Below, piece after piece: positions 746-27,893 of a stretch of DNA of 64,000 nucleotides. A program made the translations under genes and the position numbers. The DNA is from an uncultured Alphaproteobacteria bacterium (GTDB lineage: Bacteria; Pseudomonadota; Alphaproteobacteria; Rs-D84), in contig CALDAH010000008.1 in NCBI GenBank assembly GCA_937903135.1, positions 1,515-65,514 of the forward strand. Reading direction: 5' to 3'. Under the pieces are notes generated by a model that worked only from the letters and a program-made list of their open reading frames with translations, had not been told where the DNA came from and did no database searches. Numbering within the stretch: the stretch's first letter is position 1; every line of letters starts with the position of its first letter.

Positions 746-799
746 TATACAATAATTTAAAATTATGATATAATAAGTCCCCGAAAGGGGGCTTTTGTT

Positions 800-1102
800 A
801 TGAAAAAATTATTGCTTTTGGTTATGCTGACATCTGTGCTCGGGGCGTGTAATAAACAGGACGAAGATTTATTTATCCGTCAATGCGGGGACTATACCGT
901 TGAAATGGATTTCTCGGATGATGGTAGTTATATGAATGCCGATATTAACGGCGACGAGGTTATATTGGAACGCGTAATATCTGCGTCCGGGGCAAAATAT
1001 TCCGGCGTATTAAATGATACTAATATCGTTATGTGGGGCAAAGGCGACGAATGGACCATGCTGCTTGATGATGATATGATTATATCATGTGTCGCAGAAT
1101 AA
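800..1102 (+). CDS. MliC-family (lysozyme-inhibitor-like) lipoprotein
   Basis: Lipoprotein signal MKKLLLLVMLTSVLGAC. SASGAKYSG matches the conserved S-G-x-G-A-K/R-Y motif of MliC. Size is about 100 aa. Confidence 0.6.
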   Translation: MKKLLLLVMLTSVLGACNKQDEDLFIRQCGDYTVEMDFSDDGSYMNADINGDEVILERVISASGAKYSGVLNDTNIVMWGKGDEWTMLLDDDMIISCVAE

Positions 1103-1125
1103 TTTATAAACATAGGGGCGAATAA

Positions 1126-2214: not shown

Positions 2215-2219
2215 AATAT

Positions 2220-2250
2220 ATCCCGGGGGATTTCCCCGGGATAATTTTTT
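2220..2250 (+). terminator. Rho-independent terminator after mraY
   Basis: Perfect 9-bp stem ATCCCGGGG / CCCCGGGAT with loop GATTT, followed by AATTTTTTTA. Confidence 0.65.
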
Positions 2251-2293
2251 TATCAATATATTTTTCAAAAAAAGATGGTATAATATCACCGTT

Positions 2294-3439
2294 ATGTTTA
2301 TACGAAGAAGCGAAGAAAGCAAATTAACCAATTGGTATTTTCAAATAGACCGGCGGCTGCTGGGATATTTACTGGTTTTAATCTGTGTCGGTATGGTATG
2401 CGTTGTATCCGCCGGATCTGTTCAGGCACTGCGCAAGGGCTGGGACTGGTACTATTTCCTGGTTCGTATGCTGCCGTTTTATATCGTTGGTATTGCATCG
2501 CTGTTTATCGCAAGTGCGCTGAATAAAAAATTAGTTATTTTAATCGCGATATTAAACCTGGTTATGTGTTTCCCGCTTTTACTGCTAACCGTTATTATCC
2601 CACAGGCACACCACGGGTCTGCGCGCTGGGTAACACTTGCCGGGGTACAGCTAATGCCCGCCGATATTATGAAGCCCGGATTTGTTATTATGACGGCGTG
2701 GTTCTTAACAAAAATGAAAGAAAAATTCGGCGAAGATATTTTTACAAGTAAACAGGCCTGGCGTTTCCAAGCACTTAGCTGGTGGCCATACCTCGGACTG
2801 TTTTTAGTTACCCTGGCGGTATTATTCAGTCAGCCGGATATCGGGACGTCTATTCTGTATTTTTCGGTATTTGGGATTATGCTGTTTATGGCGGGACTGC
2901 CGCGGATAATATGCTTTGCACTGGGCGGGATTTTGGGACTTGGCGCTGTGGCGGCGTTTATTGTAAAGCCACACGTTCACCGGCGTGTTATGGACTTTTT
3001 ATTCGCGCCACTTGACCCGCAGACCCAGGTCGGGTATTCCGTTAGTGCAATTCGTCAGGGCGGACTGTTCGGAATGGGCGACGAAGCATTTGCCAAAGAA
3101 CACCTGCCCGATGCCCATACGGATTTTATTTATGCTGCAATCGCCGAAGATTTCGGGGCAATTGTTGCATGTATGTTGCTGGTATTGCTGGTATTGGTTT
3201 TAAAACGTTTAACAACCGATGCACTGCGCGCCCGCGACCCGTTTGTTTTTTATGCAACCGGTGGCGCGGCGGCATTATTCGGCGTGCAGATTTGTATTAA
3301 TCTGGCCACGACGCTGCATATTATGCCGCCAAAGGGCATGACACTGCCGTTTATATCATCAGGGGGCAGTTCGTTTTTAGGTTTTTGTCTGTTATTCGGT
3401 ATGATATTGGCCATCGTACGCGAGGATAAATGGAAATAA
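2294..3439 (+). CDS. ftsW: SEDS-family peptidoglycan glycosyltransferase (FtsW by context)
   Basis: About 10 TM segments. Motifs QPDIGTS, HTDFIYAAIAEDFG and LPFISSGGSS are typical of FtsW/RodA. The gene lies between mraY and murG. Confidence 0.85.
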   Translation: MFIRRSEESKLTNWYFQIDRRLLGYLLVLICVGMVCVVSAGSVQALRKGWDWYYFLVRMLPFYIVGIASLFIASALNKKLVILIAILNLVMCFPLLLLTVIIPQAHHGSARWVTLAGVQLMPADIMKPGFVIMTAWFLTKMKEKFGEDIFTSKQAWRFQALSWWPYLGLFLVTLAVLFSQPDIGTSILYFSVFGIMLFMAGLPRIICFALGGILGLGAVAAFIVKPHVHRRVMDFLFAPLDPQTQVGYSVSAIRQGGLFGMGDEAFAKEHLPDAHTDFIYAAIAEDFGAIVACMLLVLLVLVLKRLTTDALRARDPFVFYATGGAAALFGVQICINLATTLHIMPPKGMTLPFISSGGSSFLGFCLLFGMILAIVREDKWK

Positions 3440-3456
3440 GCAAAAGGGGCGGATTT

Positions 3457-4503
3457 ATGAAAATTTGGATTGCAACCGGCGGAACAGGGGGGCACGTTTT
3501 CCCGGCATTAAGTGTCGCCGATGAATTGGTAAAACGCGGACATCGGGTTACTATATCATGTGACGGCCGCGTAAAAAAAATGGTATCCGACGGTCGTCCA
3601 CGCGGGGCGGCAATGGCGCATATATGGGCATCCGGCGTCGGGGCCAAGAGTCGTATAAACCAAATCTGGGCGTTATTTAAAATCGCGGTATCGGCGGCGG
3701 CGCTGGTATTGCGTTTTATGGTTTTCCGCCCCGATCGCGTTGTGGCATTTGGCGGATATGCATCTGTGCCGGCGGTTTTTGCCGCGCATCTGTGGCGTGT
3801 GCCGACATTTTTACACGAACAGAACGCAGCAATCGGGCGCGCGAATAAATTCGCAATGCGCTGGGTAAAAACATTAATGACAAGCTTTCCTGCCGTATCT
3901 GGCGTGCCGAAAAATTCTGTGGCGCGGGTAATATATACCGGACTGCCGGTTCGTCATGAATTCTTAGACCTGGCGGGATCGCCCGTGCCGGGGAAAAATA
4001 AATTGCTGGTAACGGGAGGGTCACTCGGGGCGCAGATCCTTGATGATGTTGTTCCGGCCGCATTGGTTCAGATTAAAAATAAAAAGATTTTTGTTACCCA
4101 CCAGACGCGTCCGGAAAACGTCGCCCGGCTGCAGAAGTTTTATGCCGATAATAAGATTCATGCAAACGTTTTGTCGTTTATTCATGATATGGCCGGAACA
4201 ATCGCCGGGGCGGATCTGGTTATCGGGCGCAGCGGTGCCAGCACGGTCATAGAGCTGGAAACAATCGGGCGCGGCGCGATATTAGTTCCACTTGGGATAA
4301 ATCCAGATCAGGCGGCAAATGCGGCCAGCTTTGCCAAGCGTGGCGGGGGATTCGCCGTCCCGCAGGATAAGTTTACGCCAAAATGGCTGGCGGCGACGCT
4401 GGGGGAATTATTTGATAACCCCGCACGGCTGGTACGGATGGCGGAAAAATCAACCGTTGCAAATAACGCCGTTGAATTAATCTGTGACTATGTAACAAAA
4501 TAA
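3457..4503 (+). CDS. murG: UDP-GlcNAc:lipid I GlcNAc transferase
   Basis: N-terminal MKIWIATGGTGGHVFPA (G-loop), plus GGSLGA and a C-terminal Rossmann half. ATG at 3457 follows AAGGGG; the ORF-track start at 3430 overlaps ftsW. Confidence 0.9.
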   Translation: MKIWIATGGTGGHVFPALSVADELVKRGHRVTISCDGRVKKMVSDGRPRGAAMAHIWASGVGAKSRINQIWALFKIAVSAAALVLRFMVFRPDRVVAFGGYASVPAVFAAHLWRVPTFLHEQNAAIGRANKFAMRWVKTLMTSFPAVSGVPKNSVARVIYTGLPVRHEFLDLAGSPVPGKNKLLVTGGSLGAQILDDVVPAALVQIKNKKIFVTHQTRPENVARLQKFYADNKIHANVLSFIHDMAGTIAGADLVIGRSGASTVIELETIGRGAILVPLGINPDQAANAASFAKRGGGFAVPQDKFTPKWLAATLGELFDNPARLVRMAEKSTVANNAVELICDYVTK

Positions 4504-4573
4504 TCCCGGGTGCATTTTTCTGCTTGCTTGCGATTCGTCATTTGTTCTATGATGGAATCGGAAGGAAAGGAAC

Positions 4574-5935
4574 ATGCGTCGTATTTCTGTTTCTGTATTA
4601 ACGATTTTTATCGCATTGCCGGCATTTGCAAACGCGCGTCTGCCGGTTGTTAACGTTGCCGCGGGCAGTGTATCGGCCCGGGCCGCATTCGGTGTTTCGG
4701 ACGTCGCCGCGCCACGGGAAAAACAAAATAACGTCGCCGTGGTCGCTGCTACTAAACCAAAACCGACCGATGTTCCGGCATCAAAAACAGCTAAAAAAAC
4801 AGTTGTCGCACGCAGCGGGAAAAAAGCCGCCAATGTGGGTGTAAAAAAATCATCCGCCGACAGCGGGGAACAGATTATCGCCGCTGCGGATGTTTTATCG
4901 CCGCGTCGGCCAAGTGCTGATCTGTGGGCGAAAAACGATACGCCACTGCGTTTGCCCCAGCCCGATGAGTTTTCGGTAATCCGGGCCGATTATGATTTAC
5001 CAGAAGAGGATTTAAACGCCGGGCCGATTGCGCCGCAGAAAACTGTTGTTGCGCGCGCCGCGGTAAAAAGCGCACCTGCGCCGGCCGCACCCACCGATAC
5101 GCCGATGGCAGAGATAGATACCCAGATCGCACGTTTGGTTGAACTGCAGCGTCGCGCCGATGAAAGTGTTCGCAGTGCGCCGGTTGCGCGGGTCGCCGAA
5201 CGTGATGTCGCGCCGATGCCTGTTGTGGCGAAAAATAATAATATCGCGCCCGCACCGGTCGCGGCGGTGGATAATCCCGAACCGGTAAGGGTTAGTCGCA
5301 TGGTTGTCCCGATGGAATCGGATGTGGTTGTGCGCAGTGTTGAAAAAAATGCATCACCGCGTATTACGGCCGTTCGCGACGATATGACAAAGATGAACCC
5401 GGCCGAGCTGCGCAAGGCGTTTCGTAAAACATTTTTATCCGAAAATAAACATTTATCCACGTTCCAGATTGATGATCGCTTTGACGTGGCCAGTGATATG
5501 ACAACCAATGCCGAAGGGTTTACGGCAAAACGCGATTTGTCCGAGGCCGGTGGAATTCGCCCGCTGGAGATTAAAATACGATTCCGTAATGATGATTCTG
5601 CGCTGTCGCGTGAAAATTATAATCTGTTAAGTGAATATGCCGCAATAGTGGTAAGCAACCCAAAACGTGCGATTCAGATCGCGATCCCGCAAAGTGTTGC
5701 CCGTAATATGGACGAACGAAAATTGGCCGCACGGCGACTGGCACTGGTTGAACAGGTTTTACGCGATACGGGCGTATCGGAACAGCGAATATTGCCGGTA
5801 TTATCCGCGCGTGATGACGATGGATTTGTTCTGCGGGTTATATCCAGTGACCAGTATGAAACATTAACGCGCAAGCAGCGAGATATGTTCGGTGATACCG
5901 TTAGCAAAAAGACGTATAAAAGCATGTCTTGGTAA
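4574..5935 (+). CDS. Secreted Ala/Pro/Val-rich protein with weak OmpA/MotB-like C-terminal region
   Basis: Signal peptide MRRISVSVLTIFIALPAFANA and a long low-complexity middle. The C-terminus (IRFRNDDSALS...LAARRLALVEQVLRDTGVSEQRI) follows the OmpA_C pattern only loosely. Confidence 0.45.
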   Translation: MRRISVSVLTIFIALPAFANARLPVVNVAAGSVSARAAFGVSDVAAPREKQNNVAVVAATKPKPTDVPASKTAKKTVVARSGKKAANVGVKKSSADSGEQIIAAADVLSPRRPSADLWAKNDTPLRLPQPDEFSVIRADYDLPEEDLNAGPIAPQKTVVARAAVKSAPAPAAPTDTPMAEIDTQIARLVELQRRADESVRSAPVARVAERDVAPMPVVAKNNNIAPAPVAAVDNPEPVRVSRMVVPMESDVVVRSVEKNASPRITAVRDDMTKMNPAELRKAFRKTFLSENKHLSTFQIDDRFDVASDMTTNAEGFTAKRDLSEAGGIRPLEIKIRFRNDDSALSRENYNLLSEYAAIVVSNPKRAIQIAIPQSVARNMDERKLAARRLALVEQVLRDTGVSEQRILPVLSARDDDGFVLRVISSDQYETLTRKQRDMFGDTVSKKTYKSMSW

Positions 5936-6669
5936 TTATGTATTTGTTTCGTAATCCACTGCGTTATATTGTTGAATTTTTATTCCCGCCGGCATGCCCG
6001 CTTTGTGGTGCGCCGGTTGATTCCCACGGTGATTTATGTATTGATTGCTGGACAGCGTTTAATTGGATTGACGGAACAAAATGCCGGCACTGTGGTTATC
6101 CGTTTATGAACGAATATGATGACGCCCCGTTATGCCCGATGTGTGCGGCAGGTAAATGCGAAATGGATCTTATTCGCAGTGCATGCGTTTATGACGATGC
6201 ATCGCGCGCGGCAATGCTGCCGTTTAAACATTGTGGAAAAATAAATTATTATCGTTTTATGGCCCGGTCAATGATCTGGGCACTGCGTGATGCGGATATT
6301 TCACCGGATTTGGTAATGCCTGTGCCACTCGCTAATCGCAGATTATGTCATCGTGGTTATAATCAGGCGGCATTACTGGCGCGTCCAATTGCCGCGGCGT
6401 TCGGTATACCGATTGATGTGGACAGTATCGGCCGAGAATTCCGCCCCGATATGGGACATAAAACCCCGCAGCAGAGAGCTGAAAATATTCATAACGTTTT
6501 TAGCGTTCGCTGCCCGGATAAAATTCGTGGCCGAAAGATTTTATTAGTTGACGATGTAATGACGAGTGGCGCAACGCTATACGAACTGCGTCGCGTATTA
6601 ATGCGGGCCGGCGCGGCCGAGGTATATGGCGTAACATTTTGTCGTGTTGCACGCGTGGTGTATAAATAA
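5929..6669 (+). CDS. comF: ComF-family phosphoribosyltransferase-domain protein
   Basis: N-terminal double CxxC zinc finger (CPLCG...CIDCW...CRHCG...CPMC) and the PRTase motif ILLVDDVMTSGATL. Confidence 0.8.
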   Translation: MVIMYLFRNPLRYIVEFLFPPACPLCGAPVDSHGDLCIDCWTAFNWIDGTKCRHCGYPFMNEYDDAPLCPMCAAGKCEMDLIRSACVYDDASRAAMLPFKHCGKINYYRFMARSMIWALRDADISPDLVMPVPLANRRLCHRGYNQAALLARPIAAAFGIPIDVDSIGREFRPDMGHKTPQQRAENIHNVFSVRCPDKIRGRKILLVDDVMTSGATLYELRRVLMRAGAAEVYGVTFCRVARVVYK

Positions 6670-6790
6670 AAAATCATTATCGCAATATTGCCCTGATTTA
6701 TTATTTGCGATGGCTGGGAATATTAAATTACAGATGGATTTTTTATGTTTATATGCACGCTTGAATTTTGATTTTATTCTGCTAGGATTT

Positions 6791-7306
6791 ATGGGTATAA
6801 TAAAAGGGATTACTGTGAAAAGATATTTTTTCGCCGCATTGGCGTTTTTATGTGGGATATCTGCGGCAAATGCATCACTGCCGTATGTTGGAATGTATCA
6901 AACGATTGACGATGTATCCGGGCAGCCGAAGTCTATTGTGGCGTTATATGAATATACGGACGGGGACGATACAGAACTGGCCGGGCGTATTGTTGCAATC
7001 TATGGCGCGGATGGTGCGGTGATAACTTCGTCGGATAAATCTAAATATATCGGTATGGATATAATCTGGGATATGGAATGGGATTTGGATGATAATAAAT
7101 ACGAAGATGGTAAAATAATGGACCCGACATCGGGCAAGGTATATTCGTCGGTTATATGGCAGGATCGGCCGGGGGAATTAAATGTACGCGGGAAAATCGG
7201 CCCGTTCGGTCGTACGCAGAAATGGAATCATTTAACGGGTACTGCACTGCCGGGTGAATTAAATAAAATAAATACAGAAAACTGGAAACCTGCGACGGGG
7301 AAATAA
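6791..7306 (+). CDS. DUF2147-family periplasmic protein
   Basis: Signal peptide (V/M)KRYFFAALAFLCGISAANA. DGKIMDPTSGKVYSS...LNVRGKIGPFGRTQKW matches the DUF2147 signature. The start is uncertain: ATG 6791, or GTG 6815 preceded by AAGGGA. Confidence 0.6.
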   Translation: MGIIKGITVKRYFFAALAFLCGISAANASLPYVGMYQTIDDVSGQPKSIVALYEYTDGDDTELAGRIVAIYGADGAVITSSDKSKYIGMDIIWDMEWDLDDNKYEDGKIMDPTSGKVYSSVIWQDRPGELNVRGKIGPFGRTQKWNHLTGTALPGELNKINTENWKPATGK

Positions 7307-7309
7307 GAA

Positions 7310-9712
7310 ATGAATATTGAACTGGGAAAAAATATTAACGCGCGCGAAATTGAATCCAGAATTCAGGAATTCTGGGATAATAACAATTTCTGGGACAATG
7401 ACGTAAAATCGGATAAGCCGCCGTTTTGTGTTATGATGCCGCCCCCGAATGTTACAGGGAATCTGCATATGGGGCATGCACTGGATAATGTTTTAACGGA
7501 TATTATTTGCCGATATAAACGTATGTGCGGGTATGATGTTTTATGGCAACCGGGAACGGATCATGCGTCAATTGCAACCCAGTTATTGGTCGAACGCGAT
7601 CTGTCCCGCAGGGGGATTAATCCGCGATCTAAAACCCGCGACGAGTTATTAGAAATCGCCTGGGCGTGGAAGGCGGAAAAGGGCGGTCAGATTATGCACC
7701 AGCTGCATACATTGGGCGTAACGCCGGTATGGGGGCGTGAACGCTTTACGATGGATGATGGCCTGTCGCGCGCGGTAACAAAGCTGTTTGTAAAATTATA
7801 TAACGAAGGGCTGATATATCGTGCCCGGCGTCTGGTTAATTGGTGTCCGAAGCAGCAGACGTCTATTTCGGATTTAGAGGTTGAGATTCGCGAAGAAAAG
7901 GGAAAGTTTTATTATTTTAAATACCCTTTATCCGACGGCGGTGATATAGAGATCGCCACAACCCGGCCCGAGACTTTATTTGGCGACCAGGCAATTGCCG
8001 TACACCCGGATAACGAACGGTTAAAGCATTTAATCGGGCGCACGGCGATAATACCGCTAACGCATATTCAGATACCGATTATCGCGGATGTTCATGCCGA
8101 CCCGGAAAAGGGTACGGGCGCGGTTAAGATTACGCCCGCGCACGACAAAGATGACTGGGCCGTCGGCCAACGTCATAATTTAACCGCGCTGTGCGTTTTA
8201 ACCAATGACGCTAAAATGGCCGATATTCCGCAAGTACCTGAAAAGTATCGCGGTATGGATCGCTTTGCGGCACGTGCGGCGATTATTGCCGATATTGATG
8301 CGGCAGGGCTGTTAACCCGGGTTGAGGATAAAACAATTCCAACGCCGTATTCCGAACGTGGCGGCGTGGTTATTGAATATATGGTTCGCGACGAATGGTT
8401 CGTTAATGTAAAACCATTGGCCGAAAAGGCCGTCGCCGCGGTTGAAGCTGGGAAAACAAAGTTTATGCCCGAACACCGCTATAACCTGTTTATGGCGTGG
8501 ATGCGCGATATTCACGAATGGTCAATATCACGTCAGCTGTGGTGGGGGCATCATATACCGGCATGGTATGATGAAAACGGAAATATATATGTCGCTGAAA
8601 ACGAAGCGGCGGCCAAGGCTTTGGCCGGCGGGGCGTCGCTGGTTCAGGAACAGGCGTGTTTGGATACGTGGTTCTCGTCCGCGCTGTGGCCGTTTTCAAC
8701 ACTGGGCTGGCCCGATAAAACGTGCGAACTGGAAAAATATTACCCGACTAATTTATTATATACCGGTGCGGATATTATATTCTTTTGGGTGGCCCGAATG
8801 ATGATGATGGGAATGTACGTTATGAACGACGTCCCGTTTAAAACGGTTAATTTCCACGGACTGGTTCGCGACGCCAAGGGACAGAAAATGTCTAAAACAA
8901 AAGGTAACGGGACTGATCCTTTGACCGTCGTTGAAAAATTCGGCGCAGACGCGCTGCGCTATTGGGTTGCAACCGCCCCGATTGGAACGGATATTCGCTA
9001 TAGCGATGACGAGGTAAAGCGTGGATCACGTCTTTTAACCAAGCTATGGAACGCGGCAAAGTATACGTTAATGAATCTGAATGATTTTGACCCGGCCACG
9101 GCCTCGGACGTTCCCGTCGCCGACCGGTTCATAGAAGATCGCTGGGTTTTATCCGAGCTGAATAAAACCATTGCCGATGTTCGTCGCAATCTGGATAAAT
9201 ACGATAACTATAATTCCCGCGCGGCGATTGATACGTTCTTTTATGATATATTCTGTGATCAGTATCTGGAATTTATCAAGGATCGTTTCTGGTCGCCGGA
9301 AAAATACAGTGCCGAATCCAAGCTATCGGCCCAGTGGACACTATGGGAGGTATTGCGCAGTGTTATCGGACTGTATGCACCGTTTATACCGTTTATAACC
9401 GAAGAGCTGTGGCAGAAAATATATCGCCCGACCGAAGGTGGGGAAACATTGCACTTAACCGCATACCCGGCCGTTCGTGATGAATATAACACCGATGTAT
9501 CCGATATGCAGATCGCATTGGATTTATTAAAAAATATCCGCGGAATGCGAACCGAGCAAAAGGTTGGAAACGGCGCAAAGCTGGCGTCTTTGACCATTCC
9601 GGCCGATACGCCTGCGGCATTGCATGGGGTAATTAAATCGGCTGCCCGCGCGTCCGAGATTAAATTTGGTCCCGGGCTGGATTTTGTTGTCGCCGCGCAA
9701 CCAAACGGATAA
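7310..9712 (+). CDS. valS: Valyl-tRNA synthetase (short form, no C-terminal coiled coil)
   Basis: PPPNVTGNLHMGHAL (HIGH), DTWFSSALWPFSTLGWP and KMSKTKGN (KMSKS) motifs; 800 aa. Confidence 0.95.
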   Translation: MNIELGKNINAREIESRIQEFWDNNNFWDNDVKSDKPPFCVMMPPPNVTGNLHMGHALDNVLTDIICRYKRMCGYDVLWQPGTDHASIATQLLVERDLSRRGINPRSKTRDELLEIAWAWKAEKGGQIMHQLHTLGVTPVWGRERFTMDDGLSRAVTKLFVKLYNEGLIYRARRLVNWCPKQQTSISDLEVEIREEKGKFYYFKYPLSDGGDIEIATTRPETLFGDQAIAVHPDNERLKHLIGRTAIIPLTHIQIPIIADVHADPEKGTGAVKITPAHDKDDWAVGQRHNLTALCVLTNDAKMADIPQVPEKYRGMDRFAARAAIIADIDAAGLLTRVEDKTIPTPYSERGGVVIEYMVRDEWFVNVKPLAEKAVAAVEAGKTKFMPEHRYNLFMAWMRDIHEWSISRQLWWGHHIPAWYDENGNIYVAENEAAAKALAGGASLVQEQACLDTWFSSALWPFSTLGWPDKTCELEKYYPTNLLYTGADIIFFWVARMMMMGMYVMNDVPFKTVNFHGLVRDAKGQKMSKTKGNGTDPLTVVEKFGADALRYWVATAPIGTDIRYSDDEVKRGSRLLTKLWNAAKYTLMNLNDFDPATASDVPVADRFIEDRWVLSELNKTIADVRRNLDKYDNYNSRAAIDTFFYDIFCDQYLEFIKDRFWSPEKYSAESKLSAQWTLWEVLRSVIGLYAPFIPFITEELWQKIYRPTEGGETLHLTAYPAVRDEYNTDVSDMQIALDLLKNIRGMRTEQKVGNGAKLASLTIPADTPAALHGVIKSAARASEIKFGPGLDFVVAAQPNG

Positions 9713-9716
9713 CCCG

Positions 9717-10445
9717 ATGAGTGAAAAGTTAATTGAAAAACGCTGCATGCAGGCGTATCAATGTGATCGCTATGGTAATGTTCGGCCGTTAATTTTAATG
9801 AATGAACTGCAGGGTATGGCCGATAAACACGCCGAGATACTAGGGTGCGGCCGGACGTATTTAACAGCTAATAACCTGGCCTGGGTTGTAACGCACTATT
9901 TGGTTGATATTATTGAAATGCCGACCGAAAACGAAGAGCTGTCGTTTATTACGTGGCCATCGTGTCAGGATGCGCTGCGTGCCACACGTGATTTTGAAAT
10001 CCACGGTGCGGATGGGCGTCTGATGGTTCGGGCAACGTCACAGTGGATATTAATTGACATGCAGCGTCGTCGCCCGATGCGGTTGGATGAACATCTGCCG
10101 AAATGGTTAATAAATCCGGTGCGTGCATGGGAACGCAGTTTTGATAAATTCCCGTCGTTTGTGCCGGAAAAAACGCATGTTATGAAATGCCGTTTTGATG
10201 ATATTGATGTAAACCAGCATATAAATAACGCAGTATATGCCGTATGGGCAACCGAAAGCGTCGGGTATGTTTATCGTAATCAGCATAAACTGTCGCGAAT
10301 AGAGTTGAATTTTAAAAAAGAAATCAGCCCAGATTCACCAGAGGTTGCGATTGACGTTGCAATTTCCGGGAACGAAAGTCGCCATACAATACGCATCGGC
10401 GATACCGAGCATGCAAGTGTTATATGCACATGGCAGCCGTTATAG
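9717..10445 (+). CDS. Acyl-ACP thioesterase family protein
   Basis: Double hot-dog layout with DIDVNQHINNAVY, typical of FatA/B-like thioesterases. ATG 9717 lies just after the valS stop. Confidence 0.65.
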   Translation: MSEKLIEKRCMQAYQCDRYGNVRPLILMNELQGMADKHAEILGCGRTYLTANNLAWVVTHYLVDIIEMPTENEELSFITWPSCQDALRATRDFEIHGADGRLMVRATSQWILIDMQRRRPMRLDEHLPKWLINPVRAWERSFDKFPSFVPEKTHVMKCRFDDIDVNQHINNAVYAVWATESVGYVYRNQHKLSRIELNFKKEISPDSPEVAIDVAISGNESRHTIRIGDTEHASVICTWQPL

Positions 10446-20993: not shown

Positions 20994-22280
20994 ATGAATT
21001 GGTTAAAAAAGTTTTGGATAGTTTTTTTATCATTCCTCCCGTTCGGGGCCGGGGCGGTCGCGCCGTTTGTTGTTGGCGGTATCGCAGGGATTGGTGTTAT
21101 TGCGGGATTTGCAATCTATCGCACGGCTGCGCCTGTAAATATGGCGGATGCGATGAACTTTTTTTCAACATGCTGGACATGTCAGATGTTTTCGGATGTT
21201 ATGGCGACAATGTCGTCGGTATTACCGAATATTTATAATGCAATCGGTCACGTAATAATTCCGTTTGCTGTGATATTAACCGCGATATGGTTCGCCTGGC
21301 GCTTAGCGTCCGGATTTATAAACGGCAAATCCGAAGATGCATGGACACTATCGGGCAGTTTCGGGACGCATCTGATAAAGCTGGCATTTATATCGGCGTT
21401 GCTGGTTGCCCCGCTGCCGCGAATGCTAACGGATATTGTAATTGAACCGGTATTTCACGTCGGGCTGTCTATTAACCGTGCCGTGGCCGGGGACGATAAA
21501 TTTGCCGAATGCGTTCTGGCGACGGCGGTGGCCGATCCTGTGGCCGCATCGGAATACGCCGCGACGTCCGGGGCATATTCGCCAAAACTGCGACATAATC
21601 TGGCGTGCGAACTCGCGACCGTTCATCAGATGACAGGACTTGGCATGACGGCCGGTTGGACCATGCTAAATATGGCGTTTAATTCAGAATACATGCATAA
21701 GATTTTATGGGATATACCGTTTTTTCCAAATATTCCGATTTTCTTTGCCGGGCTATTAATTCTGGTGATATTTTTCTGGGCACTGTTGCCAATCCCGCTG
21801 TATTTCCTAGAGGTATTCATAGAACTCTCTATGGATTTAATAATGCTGCCGCTAATGATGCTATCGTGGTTATTCAAAGACTGGGCGATATTCCCGAACG
21901 GGAAAAAGAATATAGAACAGATTATAAACAACGTTATATCCGCGACACTTGGGATCGCAATAACGGGGATTTTTGTAACATTTGCGATAATGTTCCTAAA
22001 TTCTGTATTCGGGAACTGGAACGGTGCGGGTGCATTGGCGGCGGCGATGGCGCAAAACGATTCGACAATATTAATGGATGGCCTGATGATGCGCAACGAC
22101 AGCGTTATTGCAATTATAATGATGGGGATATTTATCGCCATGTTTATGACGATGATTCCGGCCCTGTCAAAGACTTTATTCAATGTTCAGATATCCGAAA
22201 GCTATTATAAATCGGTTCAAAGTCATGCAAAAATTATGCTCGGAAACCTGAAAAAGTGGTATGCAGCGTTAAAAAAATAA
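20994..22280 (+). CDS. Polytopic membrane protein, paralog family member 5 (divergent)
   Basis: N-terminal CWTCQMFSDVM motif, loop Cys pair (AEC...LAC), then GMTAGWTML. It is separated from member 1 by a 66-bp AT-rich divergent spacer. Confidence 0.65.
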   Translation: MNWLKKFWIVFLSFLPFGAGAVAPFVVGGIAGIGVIAGFAIYRTAAPVNMADAMNFFSTCWTCQMFSDVMATMSSVLPNIYNAIGHVIIPFAVILTAIWFAWRLASGFINGKSEDAWTLSGSFGTHLIKLAFISALLVAPLPRMLTDIVIEPVFHVGLSINRAVAGDDKFAECVLATAVADPVAASEYAATSGAYSPKLRHNLACELATVHQMTGLGMTAGWTMLNMAFNSEYMHKILWDIPFFPNIPIFFAGLLILVIFFWALLPIPLYFLEVFIELSMDLIMLPLMMLSWLFKDWAIFPNGKKNIEQIINNVISATLGIAITGIFVTFAIMFLNSVFGNWNGAGALAAAMAQNDSTILMDGLMMRNDSVIAIIMMGIFIAMFMTMIPALSKTLFNVQISESYYKSVQSHAKIMLGNLKKWYAALKK

Positions 22281-22348
22281 AAAATCAAGTGCTTTATTTA
22301 ACATGACCCCCTTTTTTGTGACGGCCGAATCTGATATAATTCTTAGCG

Positions 22349-22858
22349 ATGAAACAGTTTCCGATTCTTTACTGGCCACGCAATACCCGGGGTGATAATG
22401 AATATCCCTTGGCGCGAAAGGTTATAAACGGCGCAACCGGTGTTATGCCGGGGGTCGTAACAGGTGATTTGGATTTAGCAGATATATTTAATCAGAACCC
22501 CGATGCGGCGGTATATTACCCGGTTTTTTGCGAATCAACCGGATGGTGGGGCGAACTGCTTGGCGCAGATGCGGTCGTTTCGGATAAGCTAATAATTTCC
22601 CCGGAATGTCAATTAATGGTCATTGTGGCCAAGAAAAATGCAAACACACGTGGAACAAATCAACTGCTGGCGGCGGAAATATACCCGACCAGTGGTTTTT
22701 TTAAGAAAATGAATTCCGGTATCGCCACGGTATCTGATATGCTGGCGACGGACGCGGGAACAATTCTGGCACTGTTTTCCGGCCGAAATCAAAATCAGTT
22801 TATAAATGTTCTCGAAGCGACGGGGAATTCATATCTCGGCTGTATCGGGCGTTATTAA
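22349..22858 (+). CDS. Hypothetical soluble protein
   Basis: 169-codon ORF downstream of paralog 5 with no recognisable motifs. Confidence 0.4.
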   Translation: MKQFPILYWPRNTRGDNEYPLARKVINGATGVMPGVVTGDLDLADIFNQNPDAAVYYPVFCESTGWWGELLGADAVVSDKLIISPECQLMVIVAKKNANTRGTNQLLAAEIYPTSGFFKKMNSGIATVSDMLATDAGTILALFSGRNQNQFINVLEATGNSYLGCIGRY

Positions 22859-22872
22859 ATCGCGAATATTTC

Positions 22873-22900
22873 TTGCAATATTGAAAATAGTTTGTATAAT
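22873..22900 (+). promoter_or_regulatory. Sigma70-like promoter for rpmE
   Basis: TTGCAA (22873-22878), 16-nt spacer, TATAAT (22895-22900). Confidence 0.5.
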
Positions 22901-22931
22901 TGCGTGGCTAAAATTATAAAAGGGTTATGCT

Positions 22932-23144
22932 ATGAAAAAAGGAATTCATCCCGAATACCATGAAATTAACGTTACCAGAACGGATGGTAAAACTGTAAAA
23001 ATGTATTCTTCGGTTAAGAAAGATTTGGTTCTGTCCACGGATAATCTAAATCATTCCGCATGGACCGGTCAGCGTACAAACGCCGGGGACAAGGGTCAAC
23101 GTGCCGCCGGGTTTAAAAGCAAATTTGCCGGATTTAATTTTTAA
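22932..23144 (+). CDS. rpmE: 50S ribosomal protein L31 (Cys-less alpha-type)
   Basis: MKKGIHPEYHEI... and ...NHSAWTGQ match L31; no CxxC zinc motif is present. Confidence 0.9.
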   Translation: MKKGIHPEYHEINVTRTDGKTVKMYSSVKKDLVLSTDNLNHSAWTGQRTNAGDKGQRAAGFKSKFAGFNF

Positions 23145-23174
23145 TCCGATTATTTATCCGCAGGGGGGCACGTT

Positions 23175-23879
23175 ATGGAATTGCTGATAAAAGGTTCAAC
23201 GGAATTAAACAAGATGTTTGCCGCAATGCAGCGGACGGCATCGGGTCTGCGCCGTGATTTCGGCGAGGTTGAAAATCTTCAGCAGTCATTGCGTGGTGCT
23301 CGCGACTTTGTGCAAAAGGCTGCCGCGCGGATAGAAGAAAGTATATTAAACGACCTGCTGCTGGTTCGTCCATCGGCGGGTCTGTTAACGCCGAACGTAT
23401 CGCGCGACGGTGATGGTCGTGATGAATTTGTTCTGGCGCTATCGGGGGCGGCGAACTTTGTTCGTGGAAATCAGCATTTCGCAATTTCACTTGCGCTGCG
23501 TTCAGGTGACGAAACAAAAATTGCGCTGGTATATTCCCCGATTGACGAAAGATTATATTATGCCGAAGATGGGCGCGGCGCATATGTGTTTTCAGCATAT
23601 CATTCCGCCCGGATAAAGGTTTCAAATTTATCCGTCCCATCCGAGCTTATGATCGGTTATAACACGTCGGATACGCGTCCGTTTGTCGGGGCAGCCCGTC
23701 GCACGGGATGTCCGGCACTGGATTTGGCATGGGTCGCCGCGGGTAAGTTTGATGCGTATGTATCCGATCCCCTGGACTGGGCCGAAATTGCAGCAGGCGA
23801 TTTACTGGTACGCGAAGCGGGCGGTAAAATCCAAATGACGTCCGATTTAATTGCCACCAACGGCAAGGTTGATCTGTAA
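23175..23879 (+). CDS. Inositol monophosphatase/SuhB-family protein with degenerate active site
   Basis: Family motifs are retained (ALDLAWVAAGKFDAYV, AAGDLLVREAGG). The E. coli SuhB metal ligands TEESG and WVIDPLDGTTNF are replaced by TPNVS and FVLALSGAANF. Confidence 0.75.
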   Translation: MELLIKGSTELNKMFAAMQRTASGLRRDFGEVENLQQSLRGARDFVQKAAARIEESILNDLLLVRPSAGLLTPNVSRDGDGRDEFVLALSGAANFVRGNQHFAISLALRSGDETKIALVYSPIDERLYYAEDGRGAYVFSAYHSARIKVSNLSVPSELMIGYNTSDTRPFVGAARRTGCPALDLAWVAAGKFDAYVSDPLDWAEIAAGDLLVREAGGKIQMTSDLIATNGKVDL

Positions 23880-24204
23880 AAATATCCCAATAGTATTAAC
23901 GCATATGCGAACCACGCAGCTGTCCTGCGGGTCGCTGTGTGTCCCCGGTTTATGACGGGACTGCTGGTTTAAATTAATTATATTATAGAACTGCCGAGAT
24001 TTTAGCGCAGTTGTTCGCATATCCGATTTATAGCTTTATATTATCTGCTGTGGTGTGTTTTTCCTGTATATATTATATTGTGGCACATAAATATGATTGA
24101 TAGGGTTTCTGCTGCGCGGGATTAATTGGTAAATTTCTAAAATCTTGGCCAATATAATTTTAATATAACAGAGTAATAAAATACAATAAATCAAATTCGT
24201 CATT

Positions 24205-24233
24205 TATGACGAAAGTGCGACGAAAATCACGCA
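24205..24233. repeat. Direct repeat, copy 1 (29 bp perfect; about 43 bp imperfect)
   Basis: TATGACGAAAGTGCGACGAAAATCACGCA is identical to 26566-26594. Similarity continues imperfectly (GGGGTTGATTCTG vs ATGGTTGAATTTTG). Confidence 0.9.
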
Positions 24234-24252
24234 GGGGTTGATTCTGTGGTCG

Positions 24253-25494
24253 TCATTTAATTGATTGTTTAAATAAAGACCAGCCGTGATAATATTTATT
24301 GTTTTCGCACAATCCATCAACTGTCCAATCTTGTTTTTTTTGATGACGATAACAATGTGGATGTTGGAATTTACCACGCCATAAACCTATTTTTTGATTT
24401 ATTGCGTATGATTCTTCTTCTGTATAGGTATATGGTGGATATGTTGAAACCACAGCATAGCCTTCTTTTACCATTTGGCGATTTATTTCAACGCCTTTGC
24501 TATTATAACAAACGGCTAAGCTACGTCCCCATTTTCCATATTTTATCAATTCACAGCTAACTAACCCATTGCCAATAATTTTTTTTACACGTTCTGTTGC
24601 TTCTAATCCACATGCATATTCTTTATTATTTTCATCTAAACACGTTTGTTTTCTTTCAGCAGAATCCATGCCGACTGGGCGAATGACAATAATATCATCA
24701 ATGTGCCACGTATCGCCGTCTGCTATCTTGGATACATTCCCGATAACCCATTTTCGTTTATTATGTTTATTTCGCCACAGCTGAAAATCTTTTACTTTAT
24801 AAAAATCTTTAGGAATATCAAAAGTGGTGTGTTCTTCGCTTGCCAGTTCAATATCTTGATCGTTGATTAAGTTTGATAATTGTGATTTGTCCGTTATCGG
24901 AGCAGGCAATGTGCGCTGATTATTTACATGCATATCATACCTAGATAAATTGGACTTTAATTTACTGTAATGCTTATCAAAAACCCTAATTTCTATGTTG
25001 CTATTATCAAGGCGAATCAGCAGCAGTAAATCACCTGGCTGCGCTAATTTCATAACTTTATTATCGGTACCATAGTATAATCTTTTTTCATTATTTACCG
25101 TTTTTGCGTTGGGATTCCGTCTGGGGCTGTACCAGGTTGACATATGGTTAAATGTTTCTATACCGCTATCGGATATATAATAGTATTTCGCTTTAAATTT
25201 TTTGGATTCTTTTACATCGCCGAGTACAACAACAAATTCCTTTACACCGTATAATTCTCTCATAGTGGACTTGCTTTTGCCACAGTCTGTTTTTGACAGT
25301 TTCTTTAAAGCTAATGAAATATATTCCGTGGGGAATTTGCCGTCCTGAACAACAGCATCTTCCATAACTTGCGTAGATTCATAAGGTGTTTGTATGTCCT
25401 GGCATGCAACTATCCCATATAAGGTTAGTCCGACCCCCACAAAAGCCAAAACAACTAATCTAAGCCGCGTTTTCAGCCAGTTTGAGATTTTCAT
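24253..25494 (-). CDS. Lipoprotein-anchored protein with C-terminal staphylococcal-nuclease (SNase/thermonuclease) domain
   Basis: Lipobox ...LYGIVAC. The C-terminus (KIADGDTWHIDD...RPVGMDSAERKQ...KWGRSLAVC...NRQMVKEGYAVV) follows the SNase pattern DGDT...R..GIDAPE...YGR.L..V...N..LV..G.A. The roughly 230-aa middle region is unassigned. Confidence 0.7.
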   Translation of the reverse strand: MKISNWLKTRLRLVVLAFVGVGLTLYGIVACQDIQTPYESTQVMEDAVVQDGKFPTEYISLALKKLSKTDCGKSKSTMRELYGVKEFVVVLGDVKESKKFKAKYYYISDSGIETFNHMSTWYSPRRNPNAKTVNNEKRLYYGTDNKVMKLAQPGDLLLLIRLDNSNIEIRVFDKHYSKLKSNLSRYDMHVNNQRTLPAPITDKSQLSNLINDQDIELASEEHTTFDIPKDFYKVKDFQLWRNKHNKRKWVIGNVSKIADGDTWHIDDIIVIRPVGMDSAERKQTCLDENNKEYACGLEATERVKKIIGNGLVSCELIKYGKWGRSLAVCYNSKGVEINRQMVKEGYAVVSTYPPYTYTEEESYAINQKIGLWRGKFQHPHCYRHQKKQDWTVDGLCENNKYYHGWSLFKQSIK

Positions 25495-26425
25495 TCACGA
25501 TTCCTGTTTTAAAATCATCATTTACAGGAACAACTTTACAAAGATTATTAAAGGAAAACAATCCTTTTTCGTCCATTTTACGTAAATATTTAATCAGTTG
25601 CTCTGCATTTGCTTGTATGGCTGGAACAATAACCGCATTTCCAAGCTGTCTTATTGCTCGTTCATTTGATACACTTGACATATCAAAAGAATCAGGGAAA
25701 CCCATGATTCGCTTGCCTTCTTTTGCTGTTAAACGACGCCCCATACCGTCAACAATGTAATAATCCCAACAACGGAAGGATTGAGGTGGCATTCCTGTAA
25801 AGCTAGATACCATTGTTCGGGCAATTTTTCTATTTATTGTTTGACATTCAAAAATTTCTTCTAGTGTTTTAGTCAATGGCACCTGAGGAGCAAATTCAAA
25901 CGTACTATCAACTGTATCACCAAGAAAGCCTATGATAAATACTCTTTGACGAACCTGTGGTATATTATGGTCTGTCCCCTTTACTATTTTATAGTTGAAA
26001 GAATAACCAAGTTCCTGTAATGATTCTGATATAATACGAAAACATTCACCATCTTGGGCCGTCAACAGACCTTTGACATTTTCTAAGAAAAAAGCCTTTG
26101 GGCGACGTTGTTTCAATATTTCTAATATATAAAAGAACATTGTTCCTCGTATTTCATCTGCAAACCCCTTTCGCCTTCCCAAGATTGAGAATGATTGACA
26201 TGGAAAACCTGCACACAAAATATCAAAATCGGGAATATCGGCGGGATTTACTGTTGTTATATCTTCGGCCAATCTGTCTGGTGGCATATTAAAGTTGGCT
26301 TGATAAACCTGTCGCGCCCATTTATCTTTATCACAAGCGAATACACATTCGGCCCCAACATTCTCAAATGCAATATGAAAGCCACCTATTCCAGAGAATA
26401 GGTCAATAAATTTGTACTTTTTCAT
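25460..26425 (-). CDS. dcm: DNA (cytosine-5) methyltransferase
   Basis: FIDLFSGIGGF (I), GFPCQSFS (IV), ENVKGL (VI), QVRQRVFIIG (VIII) and QLGNAV (X) motifs. ATG 26425 is preceded by GGAG. The 3' end overlaps the nuclease gene start by 35 nt. Confidence 0.9.
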   Translation of the reverse strand: MKKYKFIDLFSGIGGFHIAFENVGAECVFACDKDKWARQVYQANFNMPPDRLAEDITTVNPADIPDFDILCAGFPCQSFSILGRRKGFADEIRGTMFFYILEILKQRRPKAFFLENVKGLLTAQDGECFRIISESLQELGYSFNYKIVKGTDHNIPQVRQRVFIIGFLGDTVDSTFEFAPQVPLTKTLEEIFECQTINRKIARTMVSSFTGMPPQSFRCWDYYIVDGMGRRLTAKEGKRIMGFPDSFDMSSVSNERAIRQLGNAVIVPAIQANAEQLIKYLRKMDEKGLFSFNNLCKVVPVNDDFKTGIVNENLKLAENAA

Positions 26426-26565
26426 AAAATCTCCATTTTGGATAATAAAAAAACCGACCAAATGGCCGGAAATAAAAAAAAGCGACACACTTGTCGCTTT
26501 GTTGTCTCACATTATATCAGAAAATGGTAAAAAAATCAATATAATATAACGTGCTTATATTATAA

Positions 26566-26594
26566 TATGACGAAAGTGCGACGAAAATCACGCA
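26566..26594. repeat. Direct repeat, copy 2
   Basis: Identical 29-mer to 24205-24233. Confidence 0.9.
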
Positions 26595-26697
26595 ATGGTT
26601 GAATTTTGCCGCCCGGATGCCGCGAACGCCGTGGGCAAAAAAATTGATTTTACGGATAACGTTGATATACCCTTTATAAGGGCGTGGATGGATTAAA

Positions 26698-27039
26698 TTA
26701 TTCCCGGGTATATTTTTGTTCGTATCCACTATTGGTTTCCAGGACCAACGTGTTTTTATCGGGCATTGATATATGATATGTTTCTGTAAAATCAATAGTC
26801 TGGCCGTTGCCAATACTTTTGCCCGTCATTAAAAGTGTATTACAATCCGGCTGCGACCATTTTTCATAAACCAACGTGGCCATGTTAATGGATTCGGCCG
26901 AACCATTTTTATGCAGTTCAAATCCCTGGGTTATATTTTCCATTCCGTTTACCGGTGCATGCCATTGGCCGGTTATATCCGGGCAACGATCGCAGGCCGC
27001 CAACAGAGCAAATGATGTAAATAATAGTGCATTTTTCAT
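26698..27039 (-). CDS. Small lipoprotein, lipocalin-like domain
   Basis: Lipobox FALLAAC. The G.W...F.L..NG....N...L.Y..W...L.L.G pattern is typical of lipocalin-like lipoproteins. Confidence 0.55.
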   Translation of the reverse strand: MKNALLFTSFALLAACDRCPDITGQWHAPVNGMENITQGFELHKNGSAESINMATLVYEKWSQPDCNTLLMTGKSIGNGQTIDFTETYHISMPDKNTLVLETNSGYEQKYTRE

Positions 27040-27225: not shown

Positions 27226-27636
27226 ATGCAAAAAATATGGTTATGTGTTTTTATCTCGTGTCTGTTACAGGGGTGTGTAGAACCTGTACGAACAATAGAT
27301 GTCTATAAACTTGAAAAATATAAAGGGTCAGAAGTTCCCGTATGTGTAAATTATCGCCAAAAAGTTAATTTAATAAGAGAAGGCTGGTATGATACAGATG
27401 CGTGTGGAAATGAAACATATATGCCAGCAGAATACGAACCAATAAAAACATCTTGTAATACCAATTTTGTTCGTGTTGTATCTTATGACAAATGTTTGGC
27501 GCAATTGCCGTTACCAATTCATCTGGTTGAGAAAAAAGAAAAAAATATGACAATTTGTTATGATAGAAACAATAAAGTAGAATTGCCTATATTATATTGT
27601 CAGAAAGACAATATACAAATTATGAACCTGTATTAA
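27226..27636 (+). CDS. Small lipoprotein, unknown function
   Basis: Lipobox SCLLQGC; AT-rich 136-codon ORF containing several Cys. Confidence 0.45.
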   Translation: MQKIWLCVFISCLLQGCVEPVRTIDVYKLEKYKGSEVPVCVNYRQKVNLIREGWYDTDACGNETYMPAEYEPIKTSCNTNFVRVVSYDKCLAQLPLPIHLVEKKEKNMTICYDRNNKVELPILYCQKDNIQIMNLY

Positions 27637-27690
27637 ATAAACGGTTTGAACGTTAGTGAAAAAAGACGTTCTAGAAAATCCAACTAAACG

Positions 27691-27718: not shown

Positions 27719-27792
27719 TGGTTGGGGCGCACGGATTCGAACCATGATAAAGAGAACCAAAATCTCTTGTCCTACCATTAGACGACACCCCA
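27719..27792 (-). tRNA. tRNA-Gln (anticodon UUG)
   Basis: Hand-folded 74-nt cloverleaf: acceptor UGGGGUG/CGCCCCA (U1-A72), D stem GUCU/GGAC, anticodon stem AGAGA/UCUCU with loop UUUUGGU, T arm CAUGG-UUCGAAU-CCGUG, and an encoded CCA. Confidence 0.9.
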
Positions 27793-27893
27793 AAAACATG
27801 CAAATTATAATTAACTTTCGTACATTTGCAATAATAAAAAATTATTTAAAATTTTTTTTTAGAAAAAAAATCATAATTTTTTTAAAATAGTTC

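Follow-up and report, generated by a model that had tools for sequence, protein, structure and literature searches.

How did a methylase gene and a nuclease gene come to lie between two identical copies of a 29-nt sequence in a genome that carries this sequence nowhere else? The locus is part of a 64,000-nt stretch of DNA, analysed at its full length and here called the window, from a 0.94-Mb metagenome-assembled genome of Candidatus Enterousia from the mouse gut.

The repeat pair and the segment it encloses

The repeats and the features between them are as follows:

24205..24233, no strand: direct repeat copy 1, 29 nt perfect, then an imperfect extension at 24234-24247 (GGGGTTGATTCTG...)
24253..25494, minus strand: SNase-domain nuclease gene, 413 aa, with predicted signal peptide and lipobox (…GIVAC), EcoRII-N-like domain, linker and SNase domain
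25460..26425, minus strand: dcm, C5 cytosine DNA methyltransferase (Dcm-type, 321 aa; PF00145, 8.7e-77)
26454..26539, minus strand: expression signals of the module, a sigma70-like promoter, then two terminator-like hairpins, then the dcm ribosome-binding site
26566..26594, no strand: direct repeat copy 2, 29 nt perfect, then an imperfect extension at 26595-26608 (ATGGTTGAATTTTG)

An exact search found the 29-mer TATGACGAAAGTGCGACGAAAATCACGCA twice in the window, at 24205-24233 and 26566-26594 and both times on the plus strand, and gave no match in 100 shuffled windows, confirming the perfect direct repeats of a preliminary description of this DNA. Repeat finding lengthened the pair to 37 nt at 95% identity with 2 mismatches, and the imperfect similarity that had been noted over about 14 bp more was recovered as well: 10 of the 14 nt following the 29-mer are identical, with one gap, giving about 43 nt in total with 3 mismatches and 1 gap. 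Further out than about 43 nt, the flanks of the two copies are no more similar than shuffled sequence. All four differences between the copies sit in the last 14 of the 43 positions (P ~0.008 if placed at random), and the same four are already present in a strain diverged by 0.4%.

The whole genome holds only these two copies, even with 9 substitutions allowed in 37 nt; the genome-wide chance expectation for an exact 29-mer pair is ~1.5e-6. No further match to the core was found in 257 Candidatus Enterousia genomes (257 covered by DNA search, 101 by exact-pattern search), no copy of the repeat at 80 loci downstream of the same left-flank operon in genus relatives, and no match to an exact 25-mer from the repeat in the public collections genome_contigs and metagenome_contigs. 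Neither a third copy nor a diverged relative of the core was seen in the same genome, the genus or public contigs, and the proposed search for other cassettes flanked by this repeat returned none from the genus genomes or the public contig collections. A generic REP/MITE-like element, raised earlier as a counter-reading, was looked for and is rejected, as the genome has no more than these two copies and the genus genomes have none. An Xer/dif-like site is rejected by inspection, the 29-mer having neither dyad symmetry nor an ATAA-N6-TTAT centre, and no tRNA or sRNA was found at either copy with Rfam and ARAGORN. An assembly artefact is likewise rejected, as several independent assemblies cross both junctions; independent Logan assemblies hold both of them in single contigs of 35,969 nt (X1, X2), 4,316 nt (X3) and 3,062 nt (X7).

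The 2,332 nt between the repeats enclose, as first described, only the Dcm and SNase-lipoprotein genes (25460-26425 and 24253-25494, both on the minus strand), which overlap by 35 nt. The nuclease stop codon (24253-24255) is separated from copy 1 by 19 nt and the dcm ATG (at 26425) from copy 2 by 140 nt, in agreement with the earlier spacings of 20 bp past the operon's 3' end and about 140 bp upstream of the ATG. The predicted promoter, TTGATT-17-TG-TATAAT (26539->26511), is followed by the two hairpins (26500->26479 and 26469->26454), terminator-like and with T-runs, which immediately precede the ribosome-binding site of dcm. We also considered, and dropped, the idea that a longer stretch of the dcm promoter region had been duplicated in degenerate form on the left side of copy 1 (TGGTAAA..AAAAT..CAATATA..TAATATAAC), the gapped similarity being no better than that of shuffled AT-rich sequence.

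The insert is smaller than 20 kb and holds two genes only, without other mobile-element genes. No terminal inverted repeats and no transposase ORF were found in it, and an IS or composite transposon is rejected on these grounds. No recombinase or integrase was found between or beside the repeats, which bears out the statement that the cassette contains no integrase. An integron gene cassette (attC) is rejected too: GTTGAAT and ATATAAC motifs are present, but the folding is no better than that of shuffled sequence (z ~0), similar sites form no array in the genome, and the unit has its own promoter.

Related modules and the class of insertion

The inter-repeat segment is foreign in composition and horizontally acquired, since its GC content of 35.9% is below that of the genome (44.9%) and of the flanks (45-46%), and its homologues lie in unrelated contexts. 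GC content is 28.6% in the upstream region of the cassette; that of the 29-mer is host-like, at 44.8%. Homologous modules with the same promoter, leader, methyltransferase and nuclease were found as G013, G075, L056-L062, L144, L145 and a decayed copy on contig C30 of the same genome, in contexts that comprise P2-like tail and lysis genes, TPS loci and other chromosomal sites. Homology among these copies extends from ~8 nt before the -35 box to ~7 nt after the stop codon; because it ends inside the repeats, the latter lie just outside the module. None of the related modules has flanking repeats or any sequence like the 29-mer, indicating that the repeat is a property of this insertion site rather than of the module.

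A repeat-bracketed layout is already known for restriction-modification (RM) genes. RM units inserted with long target duplications of 30 to over 400 bp and without a mobility gene form a published class, among them low-GC type II units whose 46-47-bp flanking repeats are unique in the genome (PMC2853133); these were overlooked in the initial argument that a repeat this long exceeds a target duplication. In another reduced genome, RM units have been found at rearrangement sites (PMC4760077). The present cassette resembles the units with long target duplication (Nobusato et al. 2000; Furuta, Abe & Kobayashi 2010, PMC2853133) in being a small methylase and nuclease unit without a mobility gene, in its GC content below that of the genome, in its intergenic site near gene 3' ends within a rearranged region, and in its direct repeats of tens of bp that are unique in the genome. 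It differs from them in the length of its perfect block, 29 nt (37-43 nt imperfect), which is at or below the 30-bp cut-off for a long target duplication set in PMC2853133, and in its nuclease, which with a predicted signal peptide, lipobox and SNase fold is probably not a classical cytoplasmic restriction enzyme. Both differences count against assignment to this class: the perfect block falls short of the threshold, and an apparently exported nuclease may not break DNA in the way that has been proposed for RM-driven insertion.

On the whole, the best reading of the locus, which we put forward tentatively, is that the repeats are a junction duplication from the insertion of an RM-like unit, belonging to the known class of 'insertion of RM units with long target duplication'. 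A minimal RM-like module, with hardly anything beyond a promoter of its own, the leader with its two hairpins, dcm and the apparently exported SNase-fold nuclease, would have been acquired horizontally and would have landed between two convergent host genes, in their intergenic terminator region, where the gene order of the lineage was already broken. The repeat would be host sequence, once single at the target and doubled to both junctions by the insertion, a process for which this class would need no mobility gene of its own. Today, the repeats would act only passively, as a substrate on which RecA-type recombination could on rare occasions lose the cassette precisely or amplify it in tandem. 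Read in this way, the cassette would be a further example, from the very small genome of a gut symbiont, of RM-type units between direct repeats at rearrangement points, and would support the view of such units as mobile elements even in reduced genomes without IS elements.

The insertion site and the origin of the repeats

The host features around the cassette are these:

20994..23879, plus strand: left host flank, a conserved four-gene operon, last gene SuhB-like (Inositol_P)
24196..24213, minus strand: terminator-like palindrome TTCGTCATAAATGACGAA with T-rich tail, one half in repeat copy 1, the other in the left host flank
26698..27039, minus strand: right host flank, a lipocalin-like gene, convergent with the left operon
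27719-27792, minus strand: tRNA-Gln, beyond the lipocalin-like gene

Of the 80 Enterousia loci fetched, 39 have PBP1A and the genes that occupy 53-10445 of the window downstream of the left operon; PBP1A, the ancestral downstream neighbour, has been lost at this locus. Judged from gene order, the site is a lineage-specific synteny breakpoint. The palindrome at 24196..24213 probably once terminated the lipocalin-like gene and now does so for the cassette, and the division of its arms between copy 1 and the host flank speaks for a host origin of the repeat. Since no empty site was found, we infer this origin, and the duplication at insertion, rather than observe them.

The search for such a site covered both genomes and metagenomes. 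The cassette is present in 16 of 16 metagenome runs and in about 20 independent contigs examined, and no empty site or circle junction was seen in either set, assembled contigs being prone to drop rare variants. Among the 257 genus genomes and the 80 operon-downstream loci, no empty site was found either, with relatives that are at most ~78% identical and whose intergenic DNA is not alignable. Exact-protein look-ups of both flanking genes yielded no empty-site contig, and the cassette is present in every conspecific contig; one run searched as raw reads proved to be free of this organism. Throughout the samples seen, the arrangement is fixed, and the 16 runs and about 20 contigs gave no sign that the unit still moves. 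A mixed population in run X13, where cassette depth is lower, is rejected, as the dip reaches beyond the cassette and follows low GC, a coverage bias. As to the idea that the repeats are a recombination substrate, 29 identical nt could in principle support precise excision, but neither of its products appeared in these contigs. The pair offers a defined test substrate, as it predicts the exact empty-site and circle junctions.

The same evidence bears on the att-type duplication proposed in the preliminary description, which we consider possible but rather unlikely. A circular cassette with a ~43-nt attP-like segment would have been inserted by one reciprocal crossover in the 29-nt core, catalysed by an integrase encoded elsewhere, and would now be a non-autonomous CIME- or pseudo-SCC-like element excisable in trans. 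A sharp-edged block of identity with an imperfect 10/14 extension on one side only is expected of a core with a similar arm (P' vs B'). In this respect, the clustering of all four differences argues against the target-duplication reading: it is not predicted by simple duplication followed by decay, and is better accounted for by an identical crossover core and a merely similar arm. TCGTCAT/ATGACGA motifs cluster near copy 1, which is bracketed on both sides by the 10-nt TCGTCATTTA, and the genome encodes five tyrosine and four serine recombinases, including three tyrosine integrases of 400-429 aa, with one integrase island flanked by a 46-nt tRNA repeat. However, the cassette has no integrase inside or adjoining, the nearest recombinase being a large serine recombinase ~10.5 kb off in a separate island; the target is neither a tRNA nor a gene 3' end; the 16 runs contain no excision or empty-site contig; and the core is found nowhere else in the genome, the 257 genus genomes or public contigs, nor does any such sequence occupy the equivalent position in related cassettes. 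Site-specific duplication is thus not established. The CIMEs of Streptococcus ICESt1/3 and the pseudo-SCC elements are organised like this cassette, with cargo genes only, direct repeats of 15-30 bp and no internal recombinase. Their att core is shared with a cognate integrase-bearing element, and other strains carry an empty attB; the core of the cassette, in contrast, had no second occurrence anywhere searched.

The repeats might also be attL and attR of a once larger element, such as a P2-like prophage with the module as cargo, whose other genes were later deleted while the methylase-nuclease pair was selectively retained. The closest homologues (Dcm 84% identical in amino acids and 79% in nucleotides, nuclease 48-52% in amino acids) indeed adjoin P2-like gpD/gpX/gpU/tape-measure and lysis genes, and the genome is under strong reduction. 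P2-type att cores, at ~27 bp, are similar in length to the 29-nt repeat. We nonetheless regard this origin as improbable. The deletion would have to stop, on one side, within 19 nt of the stop codon and to spare an intact core, two coincidences at once; the inter-repeat segment contains no phage remnant; low GC and a perfect core point to a recent event instead of long decay; and in phage-adjacent contigs the module was not seen at an att junction. A resident P2-like prophage is rejected as the source, as no P2-like genes, tail genes included, were found in this genome. The cassette shares with phage 'morons' of P2-like and lambdoid prophages a compact unit with its own promoter, a GC content unlike its surroundings and close homologues next to P2-like tail and lysis genes. 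Unlike these, it is chromosomal without nearby phage genes and bracketed by repeats, which morons normally are not, and its hairpins lie between promoter and gene, not after the gene.

Finally, two nearby host copies may have existed beforehand, as a short tandem duplication or a protein-binding site with two GACGAAA half-sites, the cassette landing between them by chance or the copies being kept alike by a regulatory function; this we hold to be highly improbable. It would fit the sub-repeat GACGAAA-N4-GACGAAA inside the 29-mer (half-sites 11 nt apart) and the activator-like position of copy 2, 25 nt upstream of the dcm -35 box, and 'chance insertion between repeats' is one of the three insertion classes in PMC2853133. 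Yet the genome contains the motif at no other place, copy 1 follows the operon and has no obvious target of regulation there, and in the rest of the module family the shared promoter is not accompanied by this sequence.

The nuclease partner

Whatever the route of insertion, the cargo is the more unusual part of the locus, a rare family of apparently exported nucleases, coupled to a methylase behind a conserved promoter and a leader with two terminator-like hairpins. The nuclease itself appears to be exported: a signal peptide with lipobox is predicted at its N-terminus, and hydrophobic N-terminal export signals are predicted in all six of six family members. The catalytic residues of its SNase domain are intact. 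In a pairwise comparison, residues 58-161 are 33% identical to the N-terminal domain of an EcoRII-C-type enzyme (E 3e-12), while Foldseek on the AF2 model of the nuclease gave SNase matches only. The module had no match in PADLOC or to known REase families, and phage and plasmid collections contained no full-length nuclease homologue.

Compared with EcoRII-type Dcm-Vsr-REase systems, the cassette likewise has its C5 methyltransferase gene directly in front of that for the nuclease and, in residues 58-161, the domain relationship just described, but its catalytic domain is SNase instead of EcoRII-C, it carries an export signal and it lacks vsr. One could imagine, with little likelihood in our estimation, that the cassette is a mobile unit, minimal and self-contained, belonging to a so-far undescribed system of 'extracytoplasmic restriction', in which a cytoplasmic methylase would mark the cell's own DNA and a lipoprotein-anchored nuclease, combining an EcoRII-N-like reader with SNase, would destroy unmarked DNA in the periplasm; the unit would spread as a promoter-to-stop-codon circle via the short flanking repeat, by host recombination and without a recombinase of its own. 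In every context with a readable upstream gene, the nuclease gene lies directly downstream of a methylase gene (L144, whose contig ends within the upstream gene and leaves it unannotated, stands outside this count), and the pairing is kept across two methylase classes.

The repeat pair and the segment between its copies

The window corresponds to C8:1515-65514 of a 935,674-bp genome (34 contigs, 93% complete), whose relatives are Candidatus Enterousia, gut Alphaproteobacteria; the runs containing the window sequence are mouse-gut metagenomes. We could confirm that perfect 29-nt direct repeats enclose a two-gene cassette of dcm and an SNase-domain nuclease gene, and both coordinates hold, as do the distances given in the preliminary description: 19 nt separate the nuclease stop codon from copy 1, where the enclosed segment ends, and copy 2 is 140 nt away from the dcm ATG.

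Features of the cassette in the window
24205-24233, + strand: direct repeat copy 1, 29-mer TATGACGAAAGTGCGACGAAAATCACGCA
24253-25494, - strand: nuclease gene
26454-26539, - strand: promoter and twin-hairpin leader
26566-26594, + strand: direct repeat copy 2, 29-mer TATGACGAAAGTGCGACGAAAATCACGCA

A repeat search lengthened the pair to 37 nt with two neighbouring mismatches (GG versus AT), and with the next bases, TTGA-TTCTG versus TTGAATTTTG, it reaches about 43 nt in total; past this point, the 120 nt on each side align at shuffled level, with no extra similarity. The 29-mer had no match in 100 shuffles, and the chance expectation for an exact pair of this length in a genome of such size is about 1.5e-6. 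Throughout the genome, the repeat occurs only as these two copies, even when 9 substitutions per 37 nt are allowed. Searches tolerating up to 3 mismatches gave no match in 100 further genomes of the genus; in other Enterousia species, the 80 loci that follow the operon forming the left flank contain nothing related; and the exact 25-mer core has no match in genome_contigs or metagenome_contigs. Because it has only two genomic copies and no matches in the genus or in public contigs, the repeat is not a generic REP- or MITE-like element, the finding that had been named as fatal to the original proposal.

The segment between the repeats spans 2,332 nt at 35.9% GC, compared to 44.9% for the genome, 45-46% for the flanking genes and a host-like 45% for the 29-mer itself. 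Along the - strand, 25 AT-rich nt come first, then a near-consensus promoter (TTGATT-17-TG-TATAAT), a pair of hairpins with a T-run behind each, and a ribosome-binding site. After these come dcm (PF00145 at 8.7e-77; TIGR00675) and the nuclease gene, which overlaps dcm by 35 nt and encodes a 413-aa protein with an SNase domain. The 10-mer TCGTCATTTA has five occurrences in the genome, two of which (24198-24207 and 24250-24259, 53 nt apart) bracket copy 1, the second including the nuclease stop codon; this pair could be microhomology remaining from a joining event.

Cargo and leader in related modules

The repeat-bracketed layout belongs to an already known kind; more unusual are the cargo and its leader. 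The nuclease family is scarce, with 7 clusters in 5.8 billion proteins, and also includes P0003-P0007 and proteins encoded in L027 (7486-8691) and L028 (7707-8972). All members begin with a predicted export signal, either a lipobox or AxA-type, and combine a reader-like domain, in common with an EcoRII-C enzyme, with an intact SNase domain and a tail of conserved Cys/His-rich character; the metal-binding and catalytic SNase residues (DGDT, R272, D277, E280, R324) are invariant across the family. In the cassette protein, the N-terminus is basic, then hydrophobic, and closes with a lipobox-like IVAC, and residues 58-161 show similarity (33% identity, pairwise E 3e-12) to the N-terminal domain of a restriction enzyme of EcoRII-C type, itself from a dcm-vsr-REase operon. 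Its AlphaFold model (mean pLDDT 66) comprises an N-terminal helix and two folded domains with disordered linkers; Foldseek recognised the SNase domain alone.

Wherever the upstream gene is readable, the nuclease gene lies directly downstream of a methylase, which is Dcm-type in G013 and the Logan contigs L056-L062, and EcoRI_methylase-type in G075 and L145; in L144, the contig ends within the upstream gene. Methylase and nuclease may form a restriction-like system in which the nuclease works outside the cytoplasm.

The L056-L062 modules share 84% aa and 79% nt identity with the cassette in Dcm and 48-52% aa in the nuclease, and have a TPS haemagglutinin gene on one side and P2-like lysis/tail genes (gpD, gpX, gpU, tape measure) on the other. 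The G013 pair is located between an autotransporter-like gene and ssb/rho. Within the window's own genome, contig C30 holds a second, decayed copy of this dcm type, and the module type thus entered the lineage more than once. The C30 gene, which adjoins rpsD, is truncated and frameshifted, has risen to 45% GC and lacks a nuclease gene, and it retains the same promoter and twin-hairpin leader.

Decayed dcm copy and further occurrences of the leader
C30:924-1455, - strand: decayed dcm with the same leader
C30:1447-1605: leader
C1:27115-27275: leader
C34/C31: leader
L027 6385-6541: leader
L057 410-565: leader
L060 3930-4084: leader
L145 95-254: leader
L028 9703-9870: leader

This upstream design is common to at least nine Enterousia methyltransferase cassettes: a -35 box TTGAYT, 17 nt, a TG-extended -10 box, two hairpins each with T5-7, a Shine-Dalgarno sequence and ATG. 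The stems vary in sequence while pairing is retained, with compensatory changes in 10 of 13 consensus pairs. It is unusual for a promoter to stand upstream of tandem terminator-like hairpins; the leader, which has no Rfam family, might act as an attenuator or insulator, or represent a tiny RNA.

Module copies are homologous from some 8 nt ahead of the -35 box to a few nt past the stop codon. As no other copy has flanking direct repeats or anything resembling the 29-mer, the repeat is a property of the insertion site rather than of the module.

Insertion site and origin of the repeats

To the left of the cassette lies a four-gene operon ending in a SuhB-like gene and conserved genus-wide; PBP1A and the genes lying here at 53-10445 come next at 39 of the 80 Enterousia loci fetched, while the remaining species have different neighbours, including several low-GC ORFs. 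On the right, the flank (lipocalin-like gene, 136-aa ORF, tRNA-Gln, marR-efflux operon) never stands beside this operon among the relatives sampled; the cassette thus occupies precisely the point, between two convergent transcription units, at which synteny breaks in this lineage. The breakpoint of a translocation in this genome (23880-24204 versus 53-10445) coincides with the cassette; RM units at rearrangement sites are known in a reduced genome (PMC4760077).

A terminator-like palindrome, TTCGTCATAAATGACGAA, with a T-rich tail on the - strand, has one arm in the first 9 nt of copy 1 and the other in left-flank DNA. In a reconstructed empty site, the hairpin would follow the lipocalin-like gene at a distance of about 130 nt, a plausible position for a terminator of this gene; given this and the host-like GC content of the 29-mer, we regard the repeat as probably host-derived.

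Direct repeats around RM genes have been assigned to three classes, site-specific recombination, insertion with long target duplication, and chance insertion between repeats, the second of which includes low-GC type II units with 46-47-bp genome-unique flanking repeats and no mobility gene (PMC2853133). The cassette is very similar to these units, and we tentatively prefer, by a small margin over att-type integration, that it would have inserted into an intergenic host site with long target duplication. A prophage remnant seems improbable, and chance or regulatory repeats are the least probable of the readings weighed here. In favour of target duplication, no recombinase lies in or beside the unit; the core has no second occurrence in anything searched and is missing from the sister modules; the repeat is host-like in composition; and the terminator palindrome is split between repeat and host flank.

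Assembled Logan contigs carry the cassette at this site in 16 of 16 runs, with no joint skipping 24234-26594 and no back-joint. As contigs conceal rare variants and the one available run of raw reads lacks the organism, rare excision may still occur. Exact-protein look-ups of the two flanking genes returned 20 and 15 contigs, and all sufficiently long ones carry the cassette in between. A lower cassette depth in run X13 was rejected as a real signal, as the dip passes the repeats and follows low GC, indicating coverage bias. Under every reading, 29 identical nt should suffice for rare homologous precise loss or tandem amplification, given RecA substrate lengths.

In a strain diverged by 0.4% (13 mismatches and a 5-nt deletion over 4.75 kb), both repeats and their imperfect extensions are unaltered. 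The differences between the copies predate strain divergence and therefore do not reflect decay of an initially perfect duplication. All four fall within the final 14 of 43 positions (P ~0.008), the pattern of an identical crossover core and a merely similar arm, as att-type integration by a single crossover would leave. TCGTCAT/ATGACGA motifs clustered at copy 1 also point to this possible origin, as do three integrases of 400-429 aa and four serine recombinases in the genome, and an integrase island flanked by a tRNA repeat. Of the preliminary proposal, the bracketed foreign insertion stands, whereas the att nature of the repeats and mobilisation in trans were not shown.

Other islands and variation near the site

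The integrase island is a classical att-flanked island, with which the cassette can usefully be compared. Another island, of low GC, encodes a large serine recombinase of 501 aa, a protein of 1,216 aa and a further Dcm-type methylase preceded by the twin-hairpin leader, together with a 32-nt direct repeat at C1:15196 and C1:19874, 4,678 nt apart.

Islands elsewhere in the genome
C22:23485-30506: 7-kb island between copies of a 46-nt direct repeat that corresponds to the 3' portion of a tRNA gene
C22:24422: 429-aa tyrosine integrase inside this island
C1:15196-27123: low-GC (24-39%) island

The short contigs or contig ends C4, C18, C31 (31.2-31.8 kb) and C34 (1-1.8 kb) have 38-192-nt identical blocks in common, surrounding Dcm-type and EcoRI-type methylase genes and paralogues of the nuclease N-terminal domain, which suggests a multi-allelic or duplicated RM-like locus unresolved by the assembler.

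Between tRNA-Gln and marR, an AT-rich inverted repeat (27839-27883) has two forms across samples; the variant, in runs X4, X5, X6, X12 and X13, comprises five substitutions and two 1-nt insertions, always together, and might represent a flipped hairpin loop or else a strain marker. For 27457-27642, several runs contain a second contig that differs by 8% along the 3' portion of the 136-aa ORF and then enters unlike sequence. Several runs also hold contigs that have tRNA-Gln (27719) in common and differ directly 3' of it; co-resident relatives differ on this side of the tRNA gene.
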